This document shows positions 4,326 to 64,000 of a DNA stretch of 64,000 bases, in pieces. The notes under the pieces were generated by a model that did no database searches, was not told where the DNA came from, and saw only the letters and a program-made list of their open reading frames with translations. Each line of letters begins with the position of its first letter. Position 1 is the stretch's first letter. Where the stretch lies: the NCBI GenBank assembly GCA_038040485.1, contig JBBPIE010000006.1, forward strand, positions 142,435 through 206,434. Reading direction: 5' to 3'. The DNA is from Candidatus Onstottus arcticum (lineage in GTDB: Bacteria; Acidobacteriota; Blastocatellia; UBA7656). A program made the translations under genes and the position numbers.

Positions 4326-5540
4326 TCAACTCGTTATTGCCCGGCACATTCGCTCGACGCCTTCAGAGATCGCTTCCGGCGACTCCTTCGAGTAAGCCAG
4401 CCTCATCGTGTTTGCTCCGCTGCCGTCAACAAAAAAGGGCTGACCCGGTACGTAAGCAACACCGCCGGCGATGGCGCGGGGAAGAACTTCAGTGGCATCG
4501 ATCCGGTTTGCGAGCTCCAACAGAATGAAGAACCCGCCGATGGGCTTTGTCCACCGCGAGCCCGCCGGCGCGAAGCGCTCCAGCGCTTCGAGCATCGCGC
4601 GGCAGCGGACTTCGTAGAAACGGCGAAGCTCGGGCAGCCGCCGCTCAATCAAGCCCGAGAGAATTGCTTCAGCGACGATCGTCTGATCCAGGACACTCGA
4701 GGAGAGATCGGCCCCTTCCTTGGCTAGCTCGATCTTCTTCGCTATCGGCTCTGGCGCGCGCAGATACGCGGTTCGAATGCCGGGCGCGAGCACTTTGGAG
4801 AAAGTACCCAAATAGACGACTCGCTCCGGCCGAAGCGCCGCAAGCGGAACCAGCCGCGCCCCTTCAGATTCGAAATACAGATCGAAGTAAGCGTCGTCCT
4901 CGATGATCAACAAATCGTGCTCGTCGGCTATCTCGACAAGCTGATGCCGCCGCTCGGTCGCAAGCGTCACCCCCGAAGGGTTCTGAAAATTCGGAATCGT
5001 GTAGATGCACTTGATGCGGCGGCCTTCTCTCGAGACCTGATCGAGCTTCTCGCGGAGGTCGCCGATGACGATGCCGCCGTCATCCTGCCGCACACCGATC
5101 ATCTCAGCTTGCGAGTTGTGCAATGCAATGATTCCGCCGATGTAACTCGGAAGTTCTACTAGCGCTATGTCACCCGGATCGATGATCACCCGCGAGATCA
5201 GGTCGAGACCCTGTTGAGAGCCGCTGGTCATAATGACTTCGGCGGACGAGACATGAGTCAACCCTCGTTCACGCAGAAGTCCGACGACCGCATCAACCAG
5301 GGCGGGCTGGCCCTTGGTCGGCCCATACTGAAGGGCGACGGGTCCTCGCTCGCGGATGACTCGCGAAGCGATCTCGGCAAGCTCCTCGATCGGAAACGTT
5401 TCGGCGCTGGGAGCGCCCGCCGCCAACGAGATCACTTCCTTGTTGCCCAGCAACGCAGTGAGCTTTCGGATCGCGTTCGGACGGATCCGGCGACCCAGCT
5501 CGGAAAGCATCTCGTCGTATTGGATTTCGGTTTTAAGCAT
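4326..5540 (-). CDS. PLP-dependent aminotransferase, class I/II fold (AAT-like / 2-aminoadipate transaminase-like)
   Basis: 404 aa with ATG start. Typical aminotransferase I/II blocks are present (LAAGAPS, NPSG, LIIEDDAYFDL, TFSKVLAPGIRTAYL with the Schiff-base Lys). Confidence 0.85.
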   Translation of the reverse strand: MLKTEIQYDEMLSELGRRIRPNAIRKLTALLGNKEVISLAAGAPSAETFPIEELAEIASRVIRERGPVALQYGPTKGQPALVDAVVGLLRERGLTHVSSAEVIMTSGSQQGLDLISRVIIDPGDIALVELPSYIGGIIALHNSQAEMIGVRQDDGGIVIGDLREKLDQVSREGRRIKCIYTIPNFQNPSGVTLATERRHQLVEIADEHDLLIIEDDAYFDLYFESEGARLVPLAALRPERVVYLGTFSKVLAPGIRTAYLRAPEPIAKKIELAKEGADLSSSVLDQTIVAEAILSGLIERRLPELRRFYEVRCRAMLEALERFAPAGSRWTKPIGGFFILLELANRIDATEVLPRAIAGGVAYVPGQPFFVDGSGANTMRLAYSKESPEAISEGVERMCRAITS

Positions 5541-5554
5541 TTGATCGGCGCCTG

Positions 5555-6163
5555 TCAGCTTTTGACGAGCAGCGTGATGTGCACAATTTTACTCGGCTCT
5601 GCCGGATCGTTGGACTTGATCGTTATCGTCTTTGACTTCGGACCCGCGACGTTTCCGGTTTCCACTTTCACCTTGATGACGCCGGCCTTACCAGGCCGGA
5701 GGACTTTCGGGAAGTCCACAGCCGTGCATCCTCAACTGGGTGCGACCGACTCGATGTTCAAGTCGCCCCTTCCAGTGTTTTTGACCACGAGGTTGCGAAC
5801 GAGCGACTTACCCTGTCTGACACTGCCGAAGTCGATGTTGCTCACCGGCAGGCTGAGCCTGGGCGCCGTTGCGCTCGAAACAGGCTGGATCGCAATCGCT
5901 GGTTTCGTCTTTGCACCCGATTTTGTTTGCGGTTGCGCTTCCTGTTTGAGCTCCGGCAGACCGGGCGGCGACTGCGGCAGGAGCGCAAGCGGGTTTGGCG
6001 CAGCCGGCGACGCGTTTGGAGCGGCCGAAGCCGTCGCGTTGGCGTTTGGGCTGCTCGGCGCGCTCGGAGGCGTGCTCGCCTCGTTAGCTCCGGAGGAGCA
6101 GCCGGTCATCAACGCTGTCAAGAAAATGGGAACAAGAAAGCGTGTCTTCATGCGGTCAGTCAT
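5555..6163 (-). CDS. DUF1573-domain lipoprotein with an in-frame TGA (complement of 5732-5734) at the conserved CxC cysteine: selenoprotein candidate or nonsense pseudogene
   Basis: Lipoprotein signal with lipobox (MTDRMKTRFLVPIFLTALMTGC), then a Pro/Ala/Ser-rich linker, then the DUF1573 domain VSNIDFGSVRQGKSLVRNLVVKNTGRGDLNIESVAPS-[TGA]-GCTAVDFPKVLRPGKAGVIKVKVETGNVAGPKSKTITIKSNDPAEPSKIVHITLLVKS. The same frame continues for 58 codons after the TGA to a TGA at 5555-5557 and matches the C-terminal half of the domain. The ORF track stops at 5732. Confidence 0.55.
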
Positions 6164-6234: not shown

Positions 6235-6675
6235 TCAAGCCGGACTGTGCCCGGCTTCAGAATCGAACGGCGCACCGCCAACCGGATCGCTTTTTCCCAG
6301 CGTGACCACAGTCGCGCCCCAGCCGCCGGCGTCCGCCGGTGCGTCCCCGTACTCGCTGACGTATGGCAAGCTTAAGAGAATCGAGCGAACGATCTCGCGC
6401 TGAACACCGACGCCTTTGCCGTGAATGATTCGCAGGCCTGTCACGCCGCGACTGTGAGCTTCGGTGATGTAGTCTTCGACCACGGCGCGAACCTGTCTGG
6501 GCGGGATTGAATGAAGGTCGAGAACGTCTGTGAACTCGAGCACGACGAGGTCGGGAAACGGGTTCTCGGGGTCCCACGGCTGGTCGTCCTCGACGCCTTC
6601 ACCGCGAGCAATCGGGGATTGGTCCTTCTTAGGAAGCAGCCGCCTGGCTGCCCTGAGCAGGAAGTCGAAGCTCAT
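6235..6675 (-). CDS. Smr (small MutS-related) domain protein
   Basis: 146 aa, ATG start. C-terminal Smr nuclease domain VLDLHSIPPRQVRAVVEDYITEAHSRGVTGLRIIHGKGVGVQREIVRSIL. Confidence 0.8.
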   Translation of the reverse strand: MSFDFLLRAARRLLPKKDQSPIARGEGVEDDQPWDPENPFPDLVVLEFTDVLDLHSIPPRQVRAVVEDYITEAHSRGVTGLRIIHGKGVGVQREIVRSILLSLPYVSEYGDAPADAGGWGATVVTLGKSDPVGGAPFDSEAGHSPA

Positions 6676-17432: not shown

Positions 17433-17525
17433 GGAGAAGTCGCCTAGTGGCTGAGGGCGGCGGTTTGCTAAACCGCTATAGGCTGTAAAGGCCTATCGAG
17501 GGTTCGAATCCCTCCTTCTCCGCCA
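17433..17525 (+). tRNA. tRNA-Ser (anticodon GCU), CCA encoded
   Basis: Acceptor GGAGAAG/CTTCTCC, D-arm GCC..GGC, anticodon stem GCGGT/ACCGC with loop TTGCTAA, long variable arm, T-arm GAGGG TTCGAAT CCCTC, discriminator G, CCA. Confidence 0.9.
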
Positions 17526-18472: not shown

Positions 18473-18740
18473 TTGAGATCTCCGTCAAGTCGTGGAGCAA
18501 GCACAATCTGCAAAGGAGTTTCTGAACAAACCGCCTGCTCGGAGCTAAGAGAATATTCGACGGCTTCGGACGTGTCCACCGGCCCGCGACCCCGCGCGAA
18601 CCCCGCGCCTTTCCGGCTCCGCGGTTGGTCGGTGATGCGGTCGACTTCTAACCGCGGAGGCGCCGAGACGCGGAGGCTTGCGCAGAGACTACCGCGGCCC
18701 TTAATAATGAAGGCCGCCAACGGCGGCGGCCTTGAGTGAG

Positions 18741-18813
18741 TACCCGCGGCGGGATTCGAACCTGCGGCCTCTTGCTCCGGAGGCAAGCGCTCTATCCACT
18801 GAGCTACGCGGGC
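18741..18813 (-). tRNA. tRNA-Arg (anticodon CCG), CCA not encoded
   Basis: Reverse complement GCCCGCGTAGCTCAGTGGATAGAGCGCTTGCCTCCGGAGCAAGAGGCCGCAGGTTCGAATCCTGCCGCGGGTA. Cloverleaf with anticodon loop CUCCGGA. Confidence 0.85.
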
Positions 18814-20620: not shown

Positions 20621-22480
20621 ATGAGCGACAAACAGATCGAGCGTGCGAAGCTAATCGGTTTTTTTGCGGGCGTTGCCGCTCTCAGCTTAATCCTGCGGAT
20701 CTCCTACTCAGGCCATCTCTTTCAAGATGATGGGTTGTGGTTCACGGCTGCCGAGCAAATTCTGCGCGGCAAGGCGCTCTACTCTGAAATCTATTTCGAC
20801 AAGCCGCCGGCCCTCCCGCTCGTTTATGCGGCGCTGTTCAAGCTCTTTGGCGCCCACATCATAATCATCCGGCTGTTTACCGTATGCTACTCAGTCGCGA
20901 TCTCAGCCGTGCTCTATTTCTTCGGGTCGTGGCTGTACGACCGCCGCACGGGCATGTTGGCGGCCGGGATGTTCGCGTTTTTCAGCACAATTTCTGTGAA
21001 CAACCACGTGCAAGGACTCAACACTGATTTCCTGATGCTGCTGCCTTACACGCTTGGCGCGTATTTGCTTATTCGCGCATGCTTCGAGCAGCGCGGCTTG
21101 TTGGCGCTGGCTGGAGGCGCGCTGGCCGGTATCGCCATCCAGACCAATCCCAAAGGCTTCTTCGACCTGATGTTCTTCGTTTTGATTTTGCTCATGGGTT
21201 GGGCGTGGGGACGTCTCAACAAAGACTCTCAGTTCGTTGATTTCAAATTGAGTTTTGCGTCTGCGACGCGATTGCTCGCGCTGTCGGCCGCCGGCGTTGT
21301 TGCGGGCGCGATTCCGTTCGTCGCTTATGTTGCGATCACCCATTCGCTTTCTGACTACTGGTTGTCGGTCTGGGTCTGGGGCACCCGCTACGCAAGCTAT
21401 TCGGCGACGCCGCCTGCCCTGGGTCGAGGGACATGGCTCTCAGCGACCTACCTGGTGCGCAATAACACATTGTTGTTTGGGCTCGCGTTTGTCATAGCAG
21501 TCACGGTCCGGCAAGGGATTCATTATCGAAAGGCTCAGCGAGGGCAAGCGAGTAGTGAGGAAGACCCTGAGAGCGCGGGCATCCTGCCCGCCGACCTCGG
21601 GAGCGAGCGCTTGTTGGGGCAAGAGATGCGGGCAGGATGCCCGCGCTCCCAGGATTTCAGATCAGATGTGACGATTCTTTTATGGCTTGCTGTGTCGTAT
21701 GCAGGAGTGATGGCAGGCGGCCGATTCTACTCCAACTACTTCTTTCAAATCCTGCCGAGTCTTTGCCTGATCGGCGCTCGGGGACTGATCGGCATCACCT
21801 CCGCTTTGAAGGCGAAACCGCCAGGGTTGCGGCGCGCCACAACCATCTTGATAGCGATTTGTTTTGTTATCACGGCCGTTCGTTTTCACACGCGCACTGC
21901 TGTTCTAGCGGCCGGCTGGATGCGCGGAACGAGCGGTGGAACAAACGGCGGTTGGTATCACAACGAACTCAATCGCGAGGAGCAATTGGTCGCTGCGTTG
22001 GTGAGAGACCTGCCTGATGGCGCGGATCGGATCGAGCGCGCGGGCGTGGAGGCGTTGCGGGCCGGCCGGCCGCCGGGCACGGTCGAGGGACCTGCGGACT
22101 ATCTTTTTGTTTGGGGATCGCGAGACGAAATCTATTACTGGTCAGGCCTGCTTCCAGCGTCGCGGTACTTAAGCGCGCAGCCGCTCACCGGCGTGCCTGC
22201 GGATACCCAGCACGTGGATGACAAGAGCCGTTCTATTCTCAGCGAAGAGGGGATGGCGGCCGCGCGAGCTCAATTGGTCCGCGACCTCGATCGGGCTCGC
22301 CCGAAATACATCGTCGACGAAATTGGTTTTTTCAATGCCGCTCTATCGATCCAGTCATACCCTGAACTCAAAGCGTTCATGAGAAACTACAGAGCCATCG
22401 GTGCGGCGGGCCGCTTTCTGATTTATCGCTGGAAGGAAGAAGATGATTCAAGCGGGGCGCAAGGCGCACCAGGTAATTAA
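20621..22480 (+). CDS. glycosyltransferase family 39 / ArnT-like (PMT_2) GT-C membrane glycosyltransferase; carries an in-frame family-A repeat insertion
   Basis: ATG start. N-terminal motif YSEIYFDKPPALPLVYAALFKLFG is the GT39/GT83 (Y/F)xxKPP loop. Multiple TM helices. Large C-terminal soluble region. Confidence 0.8.
   Translation: MSDKQIERAKLIGFFAGVAALSLILRISYSGHLFQDDGLWFTAAEQILRGKALYSEIYFDKPPALPLVYAALFKLFGAHIIIIRLFTVCYSVAISAVLYFFGSWLYDRRTGMLAAGMFAFFSTISVNNHVQGLNTDFLMLLPYTLGAYLLIRACFEQRGLLALAGGALAGIAIQTNPKGFFDLMFFVLILLMGWAWGRLNKDSQFVDFKLSFASATRLLALSAAGVVAGAIPFVAYVAITHSLSDYWLSVWVWGTRYASYSATPPALGRGTWLSATYLVRNNTLLFGLAFVIAVTVRQGIHYRKAQRGQASSEEDPESAGILPADLGSERLLGQEMRAGCPRSQDFRSDVTILLWLAVSYAGVMAGGRFYSNYFFQILPSLCLIGARGLIGITSALKAKPPGLRRATTILIAICFVITAVRFHTRTAVLAAGWMRGTSGGTNGGWYHNELNREEQLVAALVRDLPDGADRIERAGVEALRAGRPPGTVEGPADYLFVWGSRDEIYYWSGLLPASRYLSAQPLTGVPADTQHVDDKSRSILSEEGMAAARAQLVRDLDRARPKYIVDEIGFFNAALSIQSYPELKAFMRNYRAIGAAGRFLIYRWKEEDDSSGAQGAPGN
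21568..21653. repeat. family-A MITE/REP-like element, copy 3, inserted in-frame inside the GT39 CDS
   Basis: Left arm tgagagcgcgggcatcctgcccgc (21568-21591) and right arm gcgggcaggatgcccgcgctcccagga (21628-21653) are reverse complements. Translated in frame as ...ESAGILPADLGSERLLGQEMRAGCPRSQ... Confidence 0.65.
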
Positions 22481-23865
22481 TGCCCGGCCCGCGTCCGGTA
22501 CTCAGTGGTTCCACTATGACGGCTCAACATCGAAACCGGACCCTTGCAGTTGCGGTTTGGTGCGCAGCATTGATCCTCTCTGGGGTTGGCCAAGCGCAAG
22601 CCGTGTTGGAACGCATTCAAGCCGCAAAGTCTGACATCAACCTCTCGCCGCGGCGGGCTCCGCTTCTGGGCGCCGATATGTCGTTCGCTTCCGACCCGTC
22701 GCAGCTAATCGAAGGATGGCTTGACCAGGAGAAGGGCGACGCGATGGCAGCCGCGTTCAACAGCGCCGGTTTGAAGAGCCTGCGTTTTCTGTTTGGCGGT
22801 CTCTACTCACCACTTGGTCCGGAAGCGTCGGCGAGAGTGAAAGCCGAGAACAAAGGAACGAATCCGTATCAGTGGTTTCCGCTCGACAGCTACGTCGAGT
22901 TTATAGCCCGGCACAACTTCACGACCATCGTCGGCGTCAACGTCGAAGAAGGCCCCGTCGTCGCGCGCGACGCGATTCAAAAGTTCATCGACCGCGGGTT
23001 GAAAGACCGGATCGTCGCAGTCGAGCTATCAAACGAACCGTGGCTGAATCACCGCCCGTGGCTGCCCGAAGACTTTGCCGCGCGCTCCGCCGACGTGATC
23101 GATGGATTGACGCCGCTTGGTGTTCGATTCGCATTGCCGCTTACGGTGGGCGGTGACAACAACACGCCGACGAAGCTGACCGACAACGAGTGGGTCACAC
23201 GAATGCTTCGCGCGCTCTCGGCGCGAATCGACCTCAAGAATCGCAATGACATCTACGGTGTTGTGCATCTGTACTCAAAAGGAATGCGAGGCAAGAGCGT
23301 CGAGTTCTTCAACAAAGTCGTCCAGCCGTTTGCTCCGCGCATGCGCTACGTGGTCACCGAGTTCAACATTCGGCTGAGCCTCGAAGGCAACCCGCACCTT
23401 ACGAACAAGTACGCGATGGAATTTGCTCTCAAGCTCGCCGACGTGATGAGCCGCCCGGAGATCGAAGCGATGTACACGCACTCGGTCCCCCATCACTCGG
23501 TTCTCTATTGGGCGAACGGCCGGAAGTACGCGACGGTTGTGGGAGGCCGCGATGACAAGCTCACCGGAGAGGCGATGTCACGCGGCTGGCATCTGACGCC
23601 GACTGGAAAAGTGTACGATCTGTACTCGCGTCTTGCGTGGAACGGAGACGTAATCTTGTATCGTGGCGGCGATAAGCTGAGCTATTGGGCTGTCAGGCAA
23701 GGGAACGGCCGCGTGGTTATGACTCTGATTAACGACAGCAATACGGCTGCTAAGAAAAAAGTGAACATCGAAGGCCGCGAGATGAGCTTGAGCGCGCCGC
23801 CGCGTTCAATCGTCTGTTTTGAGAAAGACGGAAAAGAAATCGAACGGCTTGTGCTTCGCTACTGA
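22480..23865 (+). CDS. secreted glycoside hydrolase, clan GH-A TIM-barrel (GH5/GH30/GH39-like)
   Basis: Start ATG overlaps the upstream stop (TAATG). Signal peptide MTAQHRNRTLAVAVWCAALILSGVGQAQA. VELSNEPW (acid/base Glu in NEP) and VVTEFN (nucleophile Glu) are spaced as in clan GH-A. Confidence 0.6.
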   Translation: MPGPRPVLSGSTMTAQHRNRTLAVAVWCAALILSGVGQAQAVLERIQAAKSDINLSPRRAPLLGADMSFASDPSQLIEGWLDQEKGDAMAAAFNSAGLKSLRFLFGGLYSPLGPEASARVKAENKGTNPYQWFPLDSYVEFIARHNFTTIVGVNVEEGPVVARDAIQKFIDRGLKDRIVAVELSNEPWLNHRPWLPEDFAARSADVIDGLTPLGVRFALPLTVGGDNNTPTKLTDNEWVTRMLRALSARIDLKNRNDIYGVVHLYSKGMRGKSVEFFNKVVQPFAPRMRYVVTEFNIRLSLEGNPHLTNKYAMEFALKLADVMSRPEIEAMYTHSVPHHSVLYWANGRKYATVVGGRDDKLTGEAMSRGWHLTPTGKVYDLYSRLAWNGDVILYRGGDKLSYWAVRQGNGRVVMTLINDSNTAAKKKVNIEGREMSLSAPPRSIVCFEKDGKEIERLVLRY

Positions 23866-60075: not shown

Positions 60076-60933
60076 CTATTCCTCGATCAAGCCGTGAGCC
60101 TTCATATAATCCCTCAGGTGCGTGGCGAAATCCTCTGCCTCATCTTCTTCGACCAATTGCTTATCGATTTTGATCTTGTGAAGAATATCCTTTGCTTTGG
60201 CGTAGGCTCGTTGATGGCTTTCTATGAGCGGACGACCTAAGAGTATGTAGAGCTTGGACAACTCGGGATGGCCTTCCACTGCAGCCGCAGTTCCGAGCAT
60301 ATTCATCGCTCTTCGTTGAATGGTCTCGGCCTTGACGTAGTCTAGTGAGACCGCTTGTAGCACTCGCCAATTGTCGTTCTTGAACGCGTGATCAAACTTC
60401 AAAGTTACCTCGTCGGTTTGAAGCGTCCAGGGACGAAGCCTCTTATGTACAAGCGTCTGTACTAACGGCCTGCTGTAAACAGCCCAAACTTCTTCGTCCG
60501 TGCGCTTCTCAGTCTCATGGGCCGCGTATTGCGATGCCACCATTCGATCGAAGATTTCACTAAGCGCTTGATCTGGATCATCCGTGATGCCCGCCAGGAC
60601 CGGGCCCGAGATAAAGCTGAGCCCCTCATCCGGCCATATCTGAGCGATGAATCCAGCGACTGTTTCGGGTGGCCGGCCCGGCGGCAACAGCGTAGGCACC
60701 AAGTCTTCCGAAAGCTTGTCGAGCGCCGATTCAAATTGTCGCAAGGACCGTTTGTAGTGTTCACCTTTAAAGTCGACAAAAGTGTTAGACAACCTCTCGA
60801 AGCGATGCTCGAATCGAGCAGCCAGATATCGCACGGATGGCGCCCAGAGAACGACACCTACATTGAGCGTCTCTCCCGTCGCCGGATCGTGAAGGTATTT
60901 GACGACACTATACGTATAGGATATGCCGTTCAT
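60076..60933 (-). CDS. DUF3037 domain protein
   Basis: N-terminus MNGISYTYSVVKYLHDPATGETLNVGVVLWAP matches the DUF3037 consensus (YSVLRYVPDxxRGEFVNIGVIL). The ATG overlaps the upstream stop (ATGA). Strong SD AAGGAGC. GC about 52%. Confidence 0.8.
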   Translation of the reverse strand: MNGISYTYSVVKYLHDPATGETLNVGVVLWAPSVRYLAARFEHRFERLSNTFVDFKGEHYKRSLRQFESALDKLSEDLVPTLLPPGRPPETVAGFIAQIWPDEGLSFISGPVLAGITDDPDQALSEIFDRMVASQYAAHETEKRTDEEVWAVYSRPLVQTLVHKRLRPWTLQTDEVTLKFDHAFKNDNWRVLQAVSLDYVKAETIQRRAMNMLGTAAAVEGHPELSKLYILLGRPLIESHQRAYAKAKDILHKIKIDKQLVEEDEAEDFATHLRDYMKAHGLIEE

Positions 60934-61760
60934 AGCAAGCTCCTTTGAAGCTCCAACTCGAATTGAGGGAGATTCATTATAACCTCAGTGATGTGCTCGC
61001 GCACTCTGGCGGCCTCGGATTGCCAAGCTCCCGGAAGAGCCGATGCTAACTGTTCAAGGCGCTCCGCGGTTAGAGCGCGCAGCCGGACAATGAGCGGCGT
61101 CCAACTTGGGGCCTTTGCTTTCAGTATCGAGTAAAACAGATGATTTGCTCCGATTCCGTGGCGTGATACCTCCCAAGGTGGAGCAAGTCCTCCAATGATC
61201 GGGAGCAAGAAACTAAAAGACCTCTCGAAGTCGAAGGCGATCAGAGATCCTGCAAGCGATGCGCAATTGGGCCTGTCCCACCGTCGATCTGGATTCTGCA
61301 CCAAGAGATCAAAGCCATAGATCAGCGTCGCCTGCTCAACTTCCTCTTGCGTCAAGAAAGCACCGGGCACGGCAGGCGTAAGTCCGCCATGCAGATATTC
61401 GCACCCGGATCCCAGACTAGGCGTCAAAGAAATACCGTATTCCGCAACAAGCGGGCTGACCGCCTGAACAAACTCGGGGCTTAAGTTGACGAGCGCCGGT
61501 GTCGGAGTAGCGACGCCGAGTTCTCTTGCCAGGAGATTCCCGAACACTTCACAAAACAAACTGGTCTCTGTGACTTCGGGGTGACCGACTGATTTGACGA
61601 CCATCAGACGATGATCCGGCGGACTTTCCGAGGTCTCCTCTTCTGAAGACGCGGACGAGTAATAGGCGCAGTCAACGACCAGCGGCCGAGTGCGGCCGAC
61701 GTCTAGCACCTTCTCAAAGCGTTGCGCTTCCCAAGTCTCAATCACTGGTGAACCTCGCAA
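60930..61760 (-). CDS. HipA-like kinase-fold protein (short, divergent catalytic loop)
   Basis: ETSLFCEVFGNLLARELGVATPTPALVNL aligns to HipA NEYYCLLLAKELGLNVPDAEIIKA. YGFDLLVQNPDRRWDRPNCA...LIAFDFERSF aligns to the HipA catalytic loop and activation-segment region (FQWLIGATDGHAKN...LTPFYDIISAF). Start TTG at 61760 or GTG at 61745, 10 nt after the hsdS stop. Confidence 0.6.
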   Translation of the reverse strand: MRGSPVIETWEAQRFEKVLDVGRTRPLVVDCAYYSSASSEEETSESPPDHRLMVVKSVGHPEVTETSLFCEVFGNLLARELGVATPTPALVNLSPEFVQAVSPLVAEYGISLTPSLGSGCEYLHGGLTPAVPGAFLTQEEVEQATLIYGFDLLVQNPDRRWDRPNCASLAGSLIAFDFERSFSFLLPIIGGLAPPWEVSRHGIGANHLFYSILKAKAPSWTPLIVRLRALTAERLEQLASALPGAWQSEAARVREHITEVIMNLPQFELELQRSLL

Positions 61761-61770
61761 ACATCAACTC

Positions 61771-63243
61771 TCACTTGCGTCGGCCCGCCCCTTTGCTGAG
61801 TCTCCGTTCTTGAAAGCGATTCGCTCTAGCGGTGGGCGGAGCCGCTGCTTCATTGCTGCGGCCTGTGCGGATGCTTTCTAGGAGAACAGATGCAGGTTCG
61901 TAGTCGCGGCCTTCGCGGCGGGCGAGTTCGGCTTCGGTCGGAACGAGTTCGCCTCGGAAGGCTTTGGCGAGGATGGATTGTGTCAGCTTATCAACGTGCG
62001 CCTGAGCCTTTCGATAACCCCCTTCAATCTGGTCGGCGAGTTTGAAGAGAGCTTCGACGCGACGGACGATTTCACTTTGTTCAGTTAGCGGTGGGAGTGA
62101 GATTCGCAGTCCTCGCACTTCTTCGCTGTTGATGTTATGCACTCCACTTGTCGAGCGTGCCGGGATTTCGATCTGGAGTCGCACATCGTAGCTGGATAGG
62201 GCAAGATTCAAATACTCCGGCAAGACCCGTGATCTGTTTGGACGAAGCCGAATCAGATAGCCCGCGTAAGCAAACCCTTTCTCCGGTTTCCTGATGAGTG
62301 CAGACTTGCCAACCAGAGATACGCTACCGTTTGACCTGATTAACAATACATCGCCTGGAACCAACCTGAGCTGCTCAAATTCCCTTTCCGGCAGCAAGGC
62401 GTACTTGACATCCGAATGGTCGATGACGCCGTCGGCGATATTGGGAATGCGCAAAACGGAAACGCCCTCTTTCTCGTAGCCACACTTCTGGGCTGTTCCA
62501 TATTTCAAAGTGTCAATAACCAAACCAACGCCAACCGACATCCAAGACTCGGGAAACTCATTCGTGGTCGATTGTCTTGCCTCGTCGAGTTGGATGAAGG
62601 CAGGTTCAGTATGCGGATTTTGCTCTCGCCAGTCAGCAGTAAGTTGGCCCGAGCAGGCCGTGGCGAGGACCGATTGACGAAAGCGTTTGAGTATCACTGG
62701 GATTCTCGCAAGTCGCTTCTGGCAGGCTTCCACTCTTGCCAATAGCTGTCTCAGCTTCGCGACGATTCGACGCTGCTCCGCGACCGACGCAAGAGGAATC
62801 TCAAGGTTGGCGAGCTTAGTGGCATTCACATTGGGGACTGCTATGCCGACAGACGACTCGGAGATGAAGGACCAATACGAATCAGACTTTAGATAGAATT
62901 CCAGATACTGGGGCAGAACGACATCCTTCAACGCCTTAAAGCGGATTAGGTAGGAGGCAAAGACGGCGTCGACCGGTGCTCGTCGAACTCGGTGACTAAT
63001 GCCGACCGAGCCTGCCCTTGAAACTAGAATGTCGTTGGGTGCTATGCGATACTTTTCTAAGTTAGCTGGTGGGGTTTGACAAAACGGGACACTGTCCCAA
63101 TCCTCAAGCCCATTTGAGATATCACTGGTCCTTAGTAGCCTGATCTTGCCAGACTTTGTCGCGCTAGATGTCCATCCGTACTGAGGCTTGGTGCACATTT
63201 CGCCTAGGGTAGCCAGAGTCCAGCCTTCCGGCAAAGTGTTCAT
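61771..63243 (-). CDS. hsdS: type I restriction-modification system specificity subunit HsdS (two target-recognition domains)
   Basis: Conserved HsdS central and C-terminal coiled regions (SVAEQRRIVAKLRQLLARVEAC, LPPLTEQSEIVRRVEALFKLADQIE) flanking two variable TRDs. The ATG overlaps the hsdM stop (ATGA). Confidence 0.9.
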   Translation of the reverse strand: MNTLPEGWTLATLGEMCTKPQYGWTSSATKSGKIRLLRTSDISNGLEDWDSVPFCQTPPANLEKYRIAPNDILVSRAGSVGISHRVRRAPVDAVFASYLIRFKALKDVVLPQYLEFYLKSDSYWSFISESSVGIAVPNVNATKLANLEIPLASVAEQRRIVAKLRQLLARVEACQKRLARIPVILKRFRQSVLATACSGQLTADWREQNPHTEPAFIQLDEARQSTTNEFPESWMSVGVGLVIDTLKYGTAQKCGYEKEGVSVLRIPNIADGVIDHSDVKYALLPEREFEQLRLVPGDVLLIRSNGSVSLVGKSALIRKPEKGFAYAGYLIRLRPNRSRVLPEYLNLALSSYDVRLQIEIPARSTSGVHNINSEEVRGLRISLPPLTEQSEIVRRVEALFKLADQIEGGYRKAQAHVDKLTQSILAKAFRGELVPTEAELARREGRDYEPASVLLESIRTGRSNEAAAPPTARANRFQERRLSKGAGRRK

Positions 63244-64000
63244 ACGGTCACGCCCTCTTCCTTGTCGATCAAGGCGATGATCTCCTTCAAGTCATCGACG
63301 ACTGCTTCAAGCTCAGTGATAGCCTCAGCGGCGAGGTCTTGAGGCTCGGGCAACTCATCGGCGTCCTCGAGCGATTCATCTTTGAGCCACGTGATGTCGA
63401 GCTTGTAGTCGCGCTCTTTGATCTTGCCGATGTGAAACTTGCGGAAGCGGCCTTCGGCACCGGTGTCGCGGCGTTTGCTCTTGCCGTTCGGGTCGTCGCC
63501 GTAACGCTTCTCGAACTCCGCGAAGTGGTCCGCTGTGAGCGGGCGTTCTTTCTTGGTTATGCCTGGCACGTTGGACCGCGCATCGAAGATCCAGACGTGT
63601 TCCGTAGGATAGCCCTTTTGAAAAAAGATCACGTTGGCTTTTACGCCTTGGCTGTACGGCGAGAACGTCCCGCGAGGCAGGCGGAGGACCGTGTGCAGAT
63701 TGCAGTCCTGCATCACGATCTCGAACACTTCACCGGCTTTGTTCTCGAACAGACAGTTGTCGGGCAGCACTACTGCGGCGCGGCCACCGGGTTTCAAGAT
63801 CGTCAGGATGTGCTGGACGAAGTTGAGCTGTTTGTTCGAAGTCTCGATGGTGAAGTCTTCGCGGTCGGGCGCCTGGTTCGCTCCTTTGGTTCCGAACGGC
63901 GGATTGGTCAAGACGACATCGAAGCGGCGGCTGTCCGGAACTTCGTAGATCGAATCGCCAAGCGCAATCTCGGGTTCAAGGCCGTGCAAGTAGAGATTCA
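63240..64000 (-). CDS. hsdM: type I restriction-modification system methyltransferase subunit HsdM; C-terminal about 250 aa, 5' end beyond the window
   Basis: N6-adenine MTase motif IV (VLTNPPFG) and the HsdM C-terminal region. The reading frame stays open to position 64000. Confidence 0.9.
   Translation of the reverse strand, partial: NLYLHGLEPEIALGDSIYEVPDSRRFDVVLTNPPFGTKGANQAPDREDFTIETSNKQLNFVQHILTILKPGGRAAVVLPDNCLFENKAGEVFEIVMQDCNLHTVLRLPRGTFSPYSQGVKANVIFFQKGYPTEHVWIFDARSNVPGITKKERPLTADHFAEFEKRYGDDPNGKSKRRDTGAEGRFRKFHIGKIKERDYKLDITWLKDESLEDADELPEPQDLAAEAITELEAVVDDLKEIIALIDKEEGVTV

Follow-up and report, generated by a model that had tools for sequence, protein, structure and literature searches.

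The in-frame TGA of a minus-strand DUF1573 gene in Candidatus Onstottus arcticum (complement of nt 5732–5734 in the 64,000-nt stretch of DNA analysed here, referred to as the window) is almost certainly a real and long-conserved selenocysteine (Sec) codon of a small predicted envelope lipoprotein of soil Acidobacteria, and a mutation at this position is excluded. The UGA is conserved, the frame downstream of it is translated, forms with Sec and with Cys at this position are orthologous, and an RNA structure linked to the UGA is under selection.

Organization of the gene

The minus-strand frame begins with an ATG at nt 6163, runs for 143 codons to the TGA, continues for 58 further sense codons and closes at a terminal TGA (nt 5555–5557). 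Around the internal TGA the protein reads ...NIESVAPS-[TGA]-GCTAVDFPKVLRPGKAG..., and the initial annotation had correctly placed the TGA at the first Cys of a CxC motif, with frame, coordinates and residues all as claimed. The layout it had proposed (lipoprotein signal, linker, DUF1573 domain) also holds, the first of these as a prediction. A putative signal peptide and a Pro/Ala/Ser-rich linker are present and, with the TGA read as Cys, PF07610 matches residues 108–193 (E = 5e-19; 68.6 bits, cut-off 26.1). PF22544 is matched as well in Pfam (E = 4.5e-13). The coding features are:

nt 5555–6163, minus strand: complete selenoprotein CDS of 201 sense codons, one of them the Sec-UGA, closed by the terminal TGA
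nt 6098–6163, minus strand: signal peptide MTDRMKTRFLVPIFLTALMTG and lipobox Cys (TGC, nt 6098–6100) of a predicted lipoprotein, assigned by eye
nt 5843–6097, minus strand: low-complexity linker rich in Pro, Ala, Ser and Asn, ~85 residues, weakly conserved among orthologs
nt 5585–5842, minus strand: DUF1573 (PF07610) domain, a PapD-like/ASH Ig-type beta-sandwich, from the Pfam match and a model of a Cys homolog
nt 5732–5734, minus strand: Sec codon UGA, in place of the first Cys of the invariant P-S-C-G-C-T motif
nt 5726–5734, minus strand: U-G-C motif (TGA GGA TGC), presumed functional centre from its invariance in alignments

The lipobox region, MTDRMKTRFLVPIFLTALMTG followed by CSS, was judged by eye rather than with a lipoprotein predictor. 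A lipobox-type ...[AG]-C-S-[SDP] sequence is kept, on inspection only, in homologs P0001, P0002, P0004, P0009, P0010 and L004.

Public gene calls split the gene into ORFs of 143 and 54 aa, the second starting at a GTG at nt 5719, 12 nt past the TGA, and the same or orthologous split calls are found in L001 and L005. All public records examined are mis-annotated in this way, either as a 'hypothetical protein' of 142–144 aa plus a fragment of 54–55 aa, or with Trp at the UGA, so that a whole clade of acidobacterial selenoproteins is invisible to standard pipelines.

Conservation of the UGA and of the downstream frame

Thirty-three independent sequences have a TGA at this very codon, and 28 of them are distinct over 60 nt. 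The 33 sequences come mostly from Blastocatellia and Chloracidobacterium metagenome-assembled genomes and from soil metagenomes. Thirteen of the 15 closest species-representative genomes carry the TGA form; their labels are Blastocatellia, Chloracidobacterium sp., Acidobacteriota and, of doubtful value, 'uncultured Clostridia'. At the same position a Cys codon, TGC, is found in orthologs L009, L020, L092, L099 and L101 and in P0001–P0005. The Cys-form orthologs and all of the more distant homologs examined codon by codon have TGC or TGT here, and a motif scan over all loci recovered one further TGA form, the distant homolog L143. The alignment of homologs that had been suggested at the outset thus gives TGA in 33 sequences, and Cys in the syntenic orthologs and, with the exception of L143, in the distant homologs. 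Four of the Cys-form orthologs (L009, L020, L092 and L099) share with the Sec forms a common Smr / DUF1573 / aminotransferase locus, and the Cys orthologs encode one continuous DUF1573 domain. The conserved neighbours of the gene (Smr, a class I/II aminotransferase and a PQQ-like beta-propeller protein) give no pointer to redox or metal chemistry.

The 58 codons past the TGA form an open frame under purifying selection, ending at a stop that is common to the orthologs; the claim that this stretch is consistent with the domain is upheld, and the divergent downstream half in relatives that would have spoken against it is not what is seen, as this half of the domain is conserved. Nucleotide identity downstream of the TGA is 63–93% among the 33 assemblies, and differences between the window and L004 in this part are distributed over the first, second and third codon positions as 13/8/36, i.e. 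with a third-position bias. Codons +1 to +4 (G-C-T-A/T), which lie ahead of any alternative start, are kept at the protein level and show synonymous variation. In each of the 18 Sec forms whose codons were analysed one by one, the Cys at +2 is encoded by TGC, and the corresponding columns 7–9 are invariant in the 28-sequence alignment A3. Since the TGA, the frame and the hairpins described below recur together in 33 independent sequences, the pattern is far beyond chance. With the UGA conservation, the syntenic Sec/Cys pairs, the downstream selection and the UGA-linked hairpin, the candidate selenoprotein proposed in the initial annotation is strongly supported.

RNA hairpins downstream of the UGA

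Two hairpins follow the UGA in the mRNA:

nt 5701–5717, minus strand: hairpin 1, GGACUU-CCCGA-AAGUCC, +15 to +31 past the UGA, 97.6% of alignment cells paired
nt 5682–5699, minus strand: hairpin 2, CCGGCC(U)-GGUA-(A)GGCCGG, +33 to +50 past the UGA, candidate SECIS core

Hairpin 1 lies where it had first been placed, while hairpin 2 is present as drawn and begins 2 nt upstream of the position given for it (about +35 to +52). The loop of hairpin 2 can be read as UGGUAA (nt 5688–5693) or as a GGUA tetraloop (nt 5689–5692), and it is UGGUAA or UGGUCA in 28 of the 28 distinct sequences, with a GGUC variant in L011, L013, L016 and L017. Its dG is -13.7 kcal/mol in the window and ranges from -7.9 to -13.7 kcal/mol over the Sec forms. 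A scan for the stem plus loop returned 27 DUF1573 matches, in every one of which the spacing from the UGA is 38 nt. In hairpin 1, G is absent from the start of the loop (CCCGA, CCU or CCC) and third codon positions within the stem are frozen.

Counted over both hairpins, 97.5% of cells are paired, against at most 61.0% when the partners are slid. Covariation is seen at two pairs, the other stem positions being invariant or changed on one side only. The pair of columns 38 and 51 in hairpin 2 occurs as all four Watson-Crick types (CG in 16 sequences, GC in 10, AU in one and UA in one) and is never unpaired; it joins the second position of a variable codon with the third, synonymous position of an Ala codon. 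In hairpin 1, pair 19–33 shows a single compensatory change, from G-C to A-U, in L091. Synonymous pair diversity is 0.17 over the hairpin codons (+5 to +17), compared with 0.51 upstream and 0.57 downstream, and is lower there than in any other 13-codon window. Pro+13 is CCT in 28/28 Sec forms and in none of five Cys forms, and Gly+14 is GGT in 28/28 Sec forms and in one of the five Cys forms. The Cys-form orthologs lack both hairpins, mean dG for hairpins 1 and 2 being -5.4 and -12.0 in Sec forms and -0.8 and -5.0 in Cys orthologs. The hairpin RNA is under selection of its own and is found only together with the TGA. Hairpin 2 is probably the SelB-binding core of a SECIS element, and hairpin 1 is probably a conserved spacer or pausing hairpin.

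For a further helix of 3 bp that would enclose the two hairpins (columns 7–9 with 53–55), proposed by RNAalifold, no claim is made: it fits the alignment, but it shows no double changes and has a U-U mismatch in several of the added sequences. The distant Sec form L143 has a two-hairpin layout resembling that of the Blastocatellia, which hints that this architecture is a property of the DUF1573 family beyond one clade.

Comparison with the bacterial SECIS consensus

In the consensus bSECIS model an apical loop of 3–9 nt is carried on an upper stem of 4–16 bp, one of the first two bases of the loop is G (usually in the pattern N1-G-[G|U]-N-N2) and the MFE is -7.5 kcal/mol or lower (PMC13188914, Fig. 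2A). Hairpin 2 conforms in loop and stem, either as a 6-nt loop on a 6-bp stem or as a 4-nt loop on a 7-bp stem, and, folded by itself, it passes the energy threshold. Its loop also has the required G, with UGGUAA fitting N1-G-[G|U]-N-N2-N in such a way that the U and A are able to pair; hairpin 1 fails this rule. Both hairpins had been offered as SECIS-like, but the loop G that SelB binding would be expected to need is present in hairpin 2 only. The consensus spacing of 16–37 nt from the UGA applies 'for most' elements, and other classes exist (PMC13188914). The loop of hairpin 2, in contrast, begins 38 nt after the UGA, 1 nt past this range, while hairpin 1, at 20 nt, lies inside it but lacks the loop G. 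Selection on the structure of hairpin 2 is evident from the four pair types at columns 38 and 51, the suppressed synonymous sites and its absence from Cys orthologs.

Like the consensus element and the SECIS of E. coli fdhF, hairpin 2 is a stem-loop within the coding sequence directly after the UGA, with G and then G or U in a small loop, and like the consensus it has a G+C-rich upper stem of 6–7 bp and an MFE far under -7.5 kcal/mol. The apical loop of the fdhF element is GGUC, the same as in the hairpin 2 variant noted above, and is situated ~18 nt after its UGA. Unlike in fdhF or the consensus, a second conserved hairpin occupies the gap between the UGA and the SelB-type hairpin. An Rfam search of nt 5500–5900 at permissive E-values gave no match; we know of no curated bacterial SECIS family that could have been matched.

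Selenocysteine machinery and other selenoprotein genes

Neither the 64-kb window nor ~1.3 Mb of flanking DNA yielded selA, selB, selD or tRNA-Sec: ARAGORN and Rfam on the window, ARAGORN on 17 related loci, and tblastn of the 1.3 Mb with approximate E. coli SelA, SelB and SelD queries all came back empty. This absence is uninformative because only 6–20 kb was covered per genome; at the level of the phylum, Acidobacteria are on record as Sec decoders. A scan of the window for ORFs split in the same frame returned only the DUF1573 gene as interrupted by an in-frame TGA, and ~400 kb of Blastocatellia sequence, scanned for any TGA with a GG[U/G]-loop hairpin behind it, gave no selenoprotein gene besides DUF1573. 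One other match of the latter scan, at nt 23863 of the window, was discarded as an ordinary stop. TGA is the normal stop of 16 of the 38 window ORFs of at least 200 aa.

Fold of the DUF1573 domain and the P-S-U-G-C-T motif

In alignments A5 and A6 (19–20 representatives) the six residues of P-S-C-G-C-T do not vary, the window protein having P-S-U-G-C-T, and the wider DUF1573 family comprises more than 6,100 matches at E ≤ 1e-5. Structure was modelled on the Cys homolog P0003, which is 59% identical to the window protein. The AlphaFold2 model (pLDDT 92.6) has seven strands and places the P-S-(U/C)-G-C-T turn between strands 3 and 4. Foldseek matched it to VesC, VesB, 2qsv and HYDIN domains, with TM-scores of 0.76–0.82 (query-normalised) and rmsd of 2.1–2.6 Å, at identities of only 10–21%. 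The modelled domain is thus a seven-strand beta-sandwich like those of the PapD-like/ASH/HYDIN-VesB group (PF22544; 6bqm VesC, 4lk4 VesB, 2qsv, 2e6j HYDIN), which are structural or interaction modules with no redox or metal chemistry implied. The HYDIN-type repeats shown residue by residue differ from DUF1573 in lacking the Cys pair at P-S-C-G-C-T. In the PDB, searches by sequence and by profile returned only HYDIN-type repeats and one marginal match, to 2qsv, and nothing from DUF1573 that carries the CGC motif. As the fold matches are structural Ig-like domains only, no function can be transferred from them, and as the fold is not known for redox or metal binding, the chemistry proposed below is drawn solely from the Sec/Cys pair and the CxC motif. 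A thiol-disulfide oxidoreductase of the thioredoxin fold was considered and rejected, since the domain is modelled as an all-beta sandwich of the Ig-like type and carries UxC rather than UxxC.

To our knowledge, no activity has been assigned to any DUF1573 protein. Redox-active CxC or Sec-Cys centres are found in yeast Erv2, with its C-G-C shuttle disulfide, and in mammalian thioredoxin reductase, with a C-terminal G-C-U-G. As in these enzymes, the two chalcogen residues of the DUF1573 turn are 0–1 residue apart, making a strained disulfide or selenenylsulfide possible, and Sec is found where the attacking nucleophile would be expected. The centres of Erv2 and thioredoxin reductase, however, are carried on flavoenzymes, whereas that of DUF1573 is part of a turn in a small Ig-like domain with no cofactor-binding fold, in a predicted exported lipoprotein.

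Alternative explanations

From one sequence alone, a Sec codon is indistinguishable from a fresh TGC-to-TGA nonsense mutation, a base-call error or a pseudogene whose 58 downstream codons are a decaying remnant, and all public gene calls do end the protein at the TGA. This alternative, which the initial annotation had left standing, is refuted by the recurrence of TGA at this codon in 33 independent assemblies with conserved downstream sequence; the retention of the open frame, the third-position bias and the common stop, and the co-occurrence of a dedicated RNA structure with the TGA, argue against it further, and its probability is negligible. A genome-wide reassignment of UGA to sense, of the code 4 or 25 type, is refuted for the window and has virtually no chance of being correct either. 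The JGI product P0006 reads ...SPSWGCT... where its locus DNA has TGA, but this Trp is an artefact of gene calling on a contig of 1.5 kb, TGA closes the many long window ORFs counted above, and no other credible gene of the window shows such an in-frame interruption.

Read-through of the UGA could also be independent of SelB, with an opal-suppressor tRNA (an allo-tRNA or a tRNA-Cys of the SelC* type) inserting Ser, Cys or another residue and the hairpins doing no more than slowing termination. Allo-tRNAs resembling tRNA-Sec have been reported on acidobacterial metagenome contigs and can act as nonsense suppressors in E. coli, the SelC* tRNA-Cys is a possible opal suppressor in other phyla, Sec machinery was not seen in the 6–20 kb covered per genome, and the hairpin spacing is slightly beyond the bSECIS consensus. 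Against this, the UGA falls exactly on a Cys of the invariant CxC motif, which is the classic Sec/Cys pair, the G-G-U loop signature of a SelB-binding SECIS is held at an invariant distance, general suppression would also affect the genes that stop at TGA, and DUF1573 has been independently catalogued as a selenoprotein family; we regard suppression as quite improbable. The case for termination being intended, either to give a 143-aa lipoprotein and a separately started 54-aa peptide or to attenuate the downstream aminotransferase gene through the UGA, is weaker again, and we consider it highly improbable. The GTG used by gene callers provides a start for the second peptide, and some truncated product is to be expected in any case, since Sec insertion in E. 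coli is only ~30–40% efficient. The split would, however, cut through one beta-sandwich at the junction of strands 3 and 4, and judging from the model neither half would fold alone; moreover, the codons ahead of the GTG are kept as protein with synonymous variation, and the Cys orthologs encode a single continuous domain.

Proposed mechanism

The explanation preferred as a whole, which we consider very probable, is of a Sec-decoding UGA, SelB recruited by hairpin 2, and an exported, lipid-anchored DUF1573 protein with a Sec-Gly-Cys centre for redox or metal(loid) chemistry. The UGA at the complement of nt 5732–5734 would be decoded as selenocysteine, with Sec-tRNA(Sec) brought by SelB, the presumed factor, after its recruitment by an mRNA element within the coding sequence. 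The recruiting element would be hairpin 2, with its G+C-rich stem of 6–7 bp and its UGGUAA loop (GGU core) 38 nt from the UGA. Hairpin 1, lying between the two, probably brings them physically closer or makes the ribosome pause at the mRNA entrance. The product would be exported and lipid-modified at Cys22, and the flexible linker of ~85 residues may tether the Ig-like DUF1573 domain to a cell-envelope membrane. There the Sec-Gly-Cys turn would most likely cycle between the selenol/thiol and selenenylsulfide states as a redox centre; alternatively, it may bind a soft metal or metalloid. A wider proposal can be made only tentatively, and we think it rather doubtful: that this is a compound class of SECIS, in which a spacer hairpin fixes a GGU-loop SelB hairpin at 38 nt, past the reach of standard finders, and that the protein represents a new type of envelope selenoenzyme of aerobic soil bacteria, with a redox or metal(loid) Sec-Gly-Cys turn on a lipid-anchored Ig-fold.

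Relationship to known DUF1573 selenoproteins

A DUF1573 selenoprotein with the motif 'UGC' was predicted in the metagenome of Olavius algarvensis symbionts (Zhang and Gladyshev 2007, PMC1976440), and DUF1573 with this motif is tabulated as a selenoprotein family in reviews of 2022 and 2026 (PMC9312934, example CAB1076174.1; PMC13188914, example MDJ0815992.1). The initial annotation did not know of DUF1573 as an established selenoprotein family; because the 'UGC' form is already listed as a predicted prokaryotic one, the novelty this implied falls away. The catalogued proteins resemble that of the window in having the PF07610 domain and Sec as the first residue of x-G-C, and in both cases the assignment of selenium comes from computational prediction. 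The catalogued examples go back to a deltaproteobacterial symbiont of a marine worm, whereas the Sec forms described here make up a large clade of orthologs in soil Blastocatellia and Chloracidobacterium, which is set apart from the catalogued entries, as these are described, by a predicted lipoprotein signal and by a recoding element with two defined hairpins. A literature search returned nothing relevant on selenoproteins in Blastocatellia or Chloracidobacterium, and no co-mention of selenocysteine and Blastocatellia. The advance is modest and consists of a large clade in the Acidobacteriota, the prediction of export as a lipoprotein, and a probable SECIS of two hairpins whose spacing lies just beyond the consensus.

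With its 28 distinct natural variants and the matched Cys orthologs that have lost it, the recoding element offers a comparative set for what a SECIS needs outside E. coli. For DUF1573 itself, with its thousands of members, the Sec/Cys pair marks the first Cys of P-S-C-G-C-T as the reactive residue, and gives the family a testable hypothesis of redox or metal-binding function.

A conserved in-frame TGA in a predicted DUF1573 lipoprotein gene

On comparative sequence grounds, the TGA that interrupts the predicted DUF1573 lipoprotein gene of the window is almost certainly a genuine, conserved selenocysteine (Sec) codon. The gene and the other features considered here are as follows.

4326-5540, minus strand: class I/II aminotransferase gene, ATG 14 nt from the selenoprotein stop
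5555-6163, minus strand: predicted DUF1573 selenoprotein gene, read from the window sequence as ATG at 6163, 143 codons, TGA (complement of 5732-5734), 58 sense codons and terminal TGA (5555-5557)
6235-6675, minus strand: Smr-domain gene, 71 nt upstream of the selenoprotein gene
17433-17525, plus strand: tRNA-Ser(GCU) gene
18740-18813, minus strand: tRNA-Arg(CCG) gene
61771-63243 (MNTLPEGWTLATLGEM...) and 63240-63989 (...VVLTNPPFG...), minus strand, in region 60076-63989: ORFs resembling, by eye, type I restriction-modification specificity and methyltransferase subunits; the second extends beyond the window end

The window protein has a putative N-terminal signal peptide with a lipobox (MTDRMKTRFLVPIFLTALMTG followed by CSS, by sequence inspection), and continues with a linker of about 85 residues, rich in Pro, Ala, Ser and Asn, and a single domain. 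With the TGA read as Cys, this domain matches PF07610 (DUF1573) in Pfam (E=5e-19, 68.6 bits, cut-off 26.1) and likewise PF22544, the HYDIN/VesB Ig-like family. The reading frame and the Pfam match bear out the initial annotation, in which the TGA was placed on the first Cys of the motif (...V-A-P-S-[C]-G-C-T...) of a DUF1573 lipoprotein. The family is large (>6,100 matches at E<=1e-5), and the motif P-S-C-G-C-T is invariant among 19-20 aligned representatives.

Three products of 142-144 aa from a protein search stop exactly at the TGA position and are 86-100% identical over the matched part; the search also gave a 55-aa product matching the C-terminal piece of the window protein. In the contigs of these products (L001-L005) TGA is present at the same codon in all, and the frame is open onward to a common stop. 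The alignment of homologs at the motif column, suggested in the initial annotation, gave TGA in 13 of the 15 closest loci (scan with one genome per species), in records labelled Blastocatellia, Chloracidobacterium sp., Acidobacteriota or 'uncultured Clostridia', and TGC or TGT in the other two and in every remoter relative inspected at codon level (Thermoanaerobaculia, Planctomycetota, Bacteroidota). Scanning metagenomes contributed 15 further TGA forms and more Cys forms; the total TGA-form set numbers 33, with 28 distinct across the 60 nt that start at the TGA.

On the 3' side of the TGA, nucleotide identity with the window drops as low as 63%, with changes concentrated at third codon positions (13/8/36 differences by codon position between the window and L004), and codons +1 to +4, which lie upstream of the GTG taken as a start by gene callers, are conserved as protein while varying synonymously. 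The sequence past the TGA is therefore translated in frame with the sequence before it, and the 58 domain-consistent codons claimed earlier are upheld by the common stop as well as by the third-position bias. A neighbour-joining tree of the domain, in which two Cys forms branch beneath the Sec clade and another three within it, suggests one gain of TGA and a few reversions, its 90 residues being too few to resolve this firmly.

Genomic context

The gene order Smr / DUF1573 / class I-II aminotransferase / beta-propeller gene is common to these loci, and the TGA forms and Cys forms L009, L020, L092 and L099 occupy the same locus. Among these genomes, the more diverged retain only 56-77% amino-acid identity in the flanking aminotransferase, which means that the TGA has persisted over a long divergence. 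The first three genes stay together in almost every related locus of sufficient length; a functional link among them is not obvious. Since the selenoprotein stop and the aminotransferase ATG are separated by only 14 nt on the same strand, these two genes are probably co-transcribed. The same tRNA-Ser occurs near the DUF1573 locus in L011, L013 and L018, with the tRNA-Arg too in L011, and synteny thus reaches at least 12 kb. Four loci titled 'uncultured Clostridia bacterium' (L009, L010, L016 and L018) carry the DUF1573 ortholog and aminotransferase (56-74% identity) as in Blastocatellia loci, with further Blastocatellia gene order in most of these MAGs; the titles are probably taxonomic mis-assignments.

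The proposed recoding element

The predicted SECIS of the window gene consists of two hairpins and is slightly non-canonical. RNA folding gives two adjacent hairpins in every TGA form. Hairpin 1 (GGACUU-loop-AAGUCC; window 5701-5717, minus strand) lies at +15 to +31, just as first described, while hairpin 2 (5682-5699, minus strand), also correctly recognized, lies at +33 to +50, 2 nt upstream of the earlier estimate. The latter has a G+C-rich stem of 6-7 bp and the loop UGGUAA, or UGGUCA in four sequences.

Across the 28-sequence alignment, standard pairs fill 97.5% of pair cells, versus at most 61.0% when the 3' partners are slid by 1-3 columns. At the third pair of hairpin 2 all 28 sequences are paired, as C-G (16), G-C (10), A-U (1) or U-A (1). 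On the 5' side this pair uses the middle base of a codon that varies among Arg, Pro, Leu, Ala, Ser and Gln, and on the 3' side the third base of an Ala codon, where changes are synonymous; this coupling is beyond what protein selection can produce. In hairpin 1 of L091, G-C is changed to A-U, an Asp-to-Asn replacement being offset by a synonymous GTC-to-GTT change. Covariation support is confined to these two base pairs. Synonymous pair diversity is 0.17 at codons +5 to +17, compared with 0.51 upstream and 0.57 downstream, the lowest among all 13-codon windows of the domain, and what variation is left affects the loops or the covarying Ala codon.

In the five Cys-form orthologs the encoded peptide (VDFPK..PGK.G) is almost the same, but neither hairpin is present, mean dG for hairpins 1 and 2 being -5.4 and -12.0 in Sec forms versus -0.8 and -5.0 in Cys forms. 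All 28 Sec forms, but none of the 5 Cys forms, have CCT for Pro+13; for Gly+14, GGT is used by all 28 Sec forms and by one of the 5 Cys forms. The RNA structure and the TGA are thus linked. The second motif Cys (codon +2; 5726-5728, minus strand) is TGC in every Sec form, and both TGC and TGT in Cys-form homologs. This UGC could pair with G-C-R at columns 53-55, closing a three-way junction round both hairpins; the helix has only 3 bp, no compensatory change, and U-U mismatches in several sequences.

In the initial annotation, either hairpin was taken as possibly SECIS-like. Compared with the consensus bSECIS model (PMC13188914, Fig. 2A), this holds for hairpin 2, which conforms in loop size, stem length, energy and a loop of G followed by G or U, but not for hairpin 1, the loop of which does not start with G although its spacing (20 nt) is within range. 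The loop of hairpin 2 starts 38 nt after the UGA in 27/27 DUF1573 sequences found by a stem-plus-loop scan, 1 nt past the 16-37 nt given as valid 'for most' elements (PMC13188914). We read hairpin 2 as the SelB-binding element, and hairpin 1 may be a conserved spacer or serve to pause the ribosome. With the UGA in the A site and about 11 nt of mRNA occluded by the ribosome, hairpin 1 would start near the mRNA entry point; once folded, it would shorten the physical path from UGA to hairpin 2.

Two other Sec forms differ in detail. The ortholog at L017:10001-10300 has U-G-C-D for U-G-C-T and VDYPR for VDFPK; in all other Sec forms Thr follows the motif. This ortholog pairs 5 bp in hairpin 1 and includes a G-U pair in hairpin 2. 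A distant DUF1573 protein (about 29% identity) on metagenome contig SDBU01000851.1 (L143:2905-3687, plus strand) has TGA at the same motif position (LKVKPG-U-GCTKAPLE), a signal peptide, an extra C-terminal region and a frame open to 3687. Its UGA is followed by two hairpins, with a GAAAA loop at about 21 nt and a GGU loop at about 41 nt, and it is a putative independent Sec form, from another lineage, of similar two-hairpin layout.

Alternative explanations

The proposal of a selenoprotein is supported by the conserved TGA, the Cys forms at the same locus and the TGA-linked RNA structure. Comparative data rule out a pseudogene, as well as the fresh mutation or base-call error first offered as the alternative, there being 33 TGA-form sequences with the frame kept open. 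Intended termination at the TGA, giving two separate products, is implausible: the break would fall within one beta-sandwich, and the stretch from the TGA to the alternative start is conserved at the protein level. A reassigned genetic code is contradicted by stop-codon usage, TGA ending 16 of the 38 long ORFs of the window, and a split-ORF scan of the window found no second credible gene interrupted by TGA; the code is therefore standard. Acidobacteria do carry tRNA-Sec-like allo-tRNAs, yet read-through of the UGA by an opal-suppressor tRNA is improbable: many genes ending in TGA would be affected, and the SelB-type loop at a fixed distance would be left unexplained. No Sec machinery was found in the 64-kb window or in the flanks of related loci (6-20 kb per genome).

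One other TGA, at 23863-23865, ends a 461-aa ORF (22480-23865, plus strand) and has a 6-bp hairpin 19 nt later, with the frame open for 57 more codons. It is most likely an ordinary stop with a hairpin nearby, given the lack of a Cys or redox context and of any sign of downstream coding.

Structure and possible function

In the confident AlphaFold2 model of a Cys homolog (P0003, 59% identical; pLDDT 92.6), seven strands form a beta-sandwich and the motif occupies the turn joining strands 3 and 4. A fold search with this model gave as closest solved structures the Ig-like domains of VesC and VesB, 2qsv (a P. gingivalis protein of unknown function) and HYDIN/ASH domains; PDB searches found no bona fide DUF1573 member with the motif. 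The fold gives no indication of the chemistry. In known selenoprotein families, a Sec/Cys pair on the first Cys of a CxC motif usually marks a catalytic redox Cys, and for this reason a selenenylsulfide/selenol-thiol redox centre is favoured, carried by a domain predicted to be exported and lipid-anchored; the motif may alternatively bind a soft metal or metalloid.

Relation to known selenoproteins

The initial annotation was not aware of DUF1573 as an established selenoprotein family, but 'DUF1573 domain-containing protein, PF07610, motif UGC' is already listed among prokaryotic selenoprotein families in two reviews (PMC9312934, PMC13188914), and the window protein is placed there by its PF07610 domain and UGC motif. 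Both reviews cite for this entry a 2007 study of the Olavius algarvensis symbiont metagenome (PMC1976440), in which the name DUF1573 is absent; its new families were defined computationally, by conservation of an in-frame TGA, homologs with Cys and SECIS prediction, and were not verified biochemically. Acidobacteria were on record in 2006 as a Sec-decoding phylum, with 3 families and 4 selenoproteins. A literature search for selenocysteine together with Blastocatellia found nothing, and Chloracidobacterium matches were irrelevant. The acidobacterial DUF1573 Sec clade and its recoding element appear to be undescribed so far; as the family is already catalogued, they represent a new, well-populated clade within a known kind.

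Public gene calls are wrong throughout (L001:2167-2772, L005:5285-5893, L002, L003 and L004; protein records P0006-P0010), giving either an N-terminal 'hypothetical protein' of 142-144 aa plus a separate 54-55-aa fragment or, in P0006 (a JGI record), a translation that has Trp for the TGA. The gene is thus subject to a systematic annotation error in public records.
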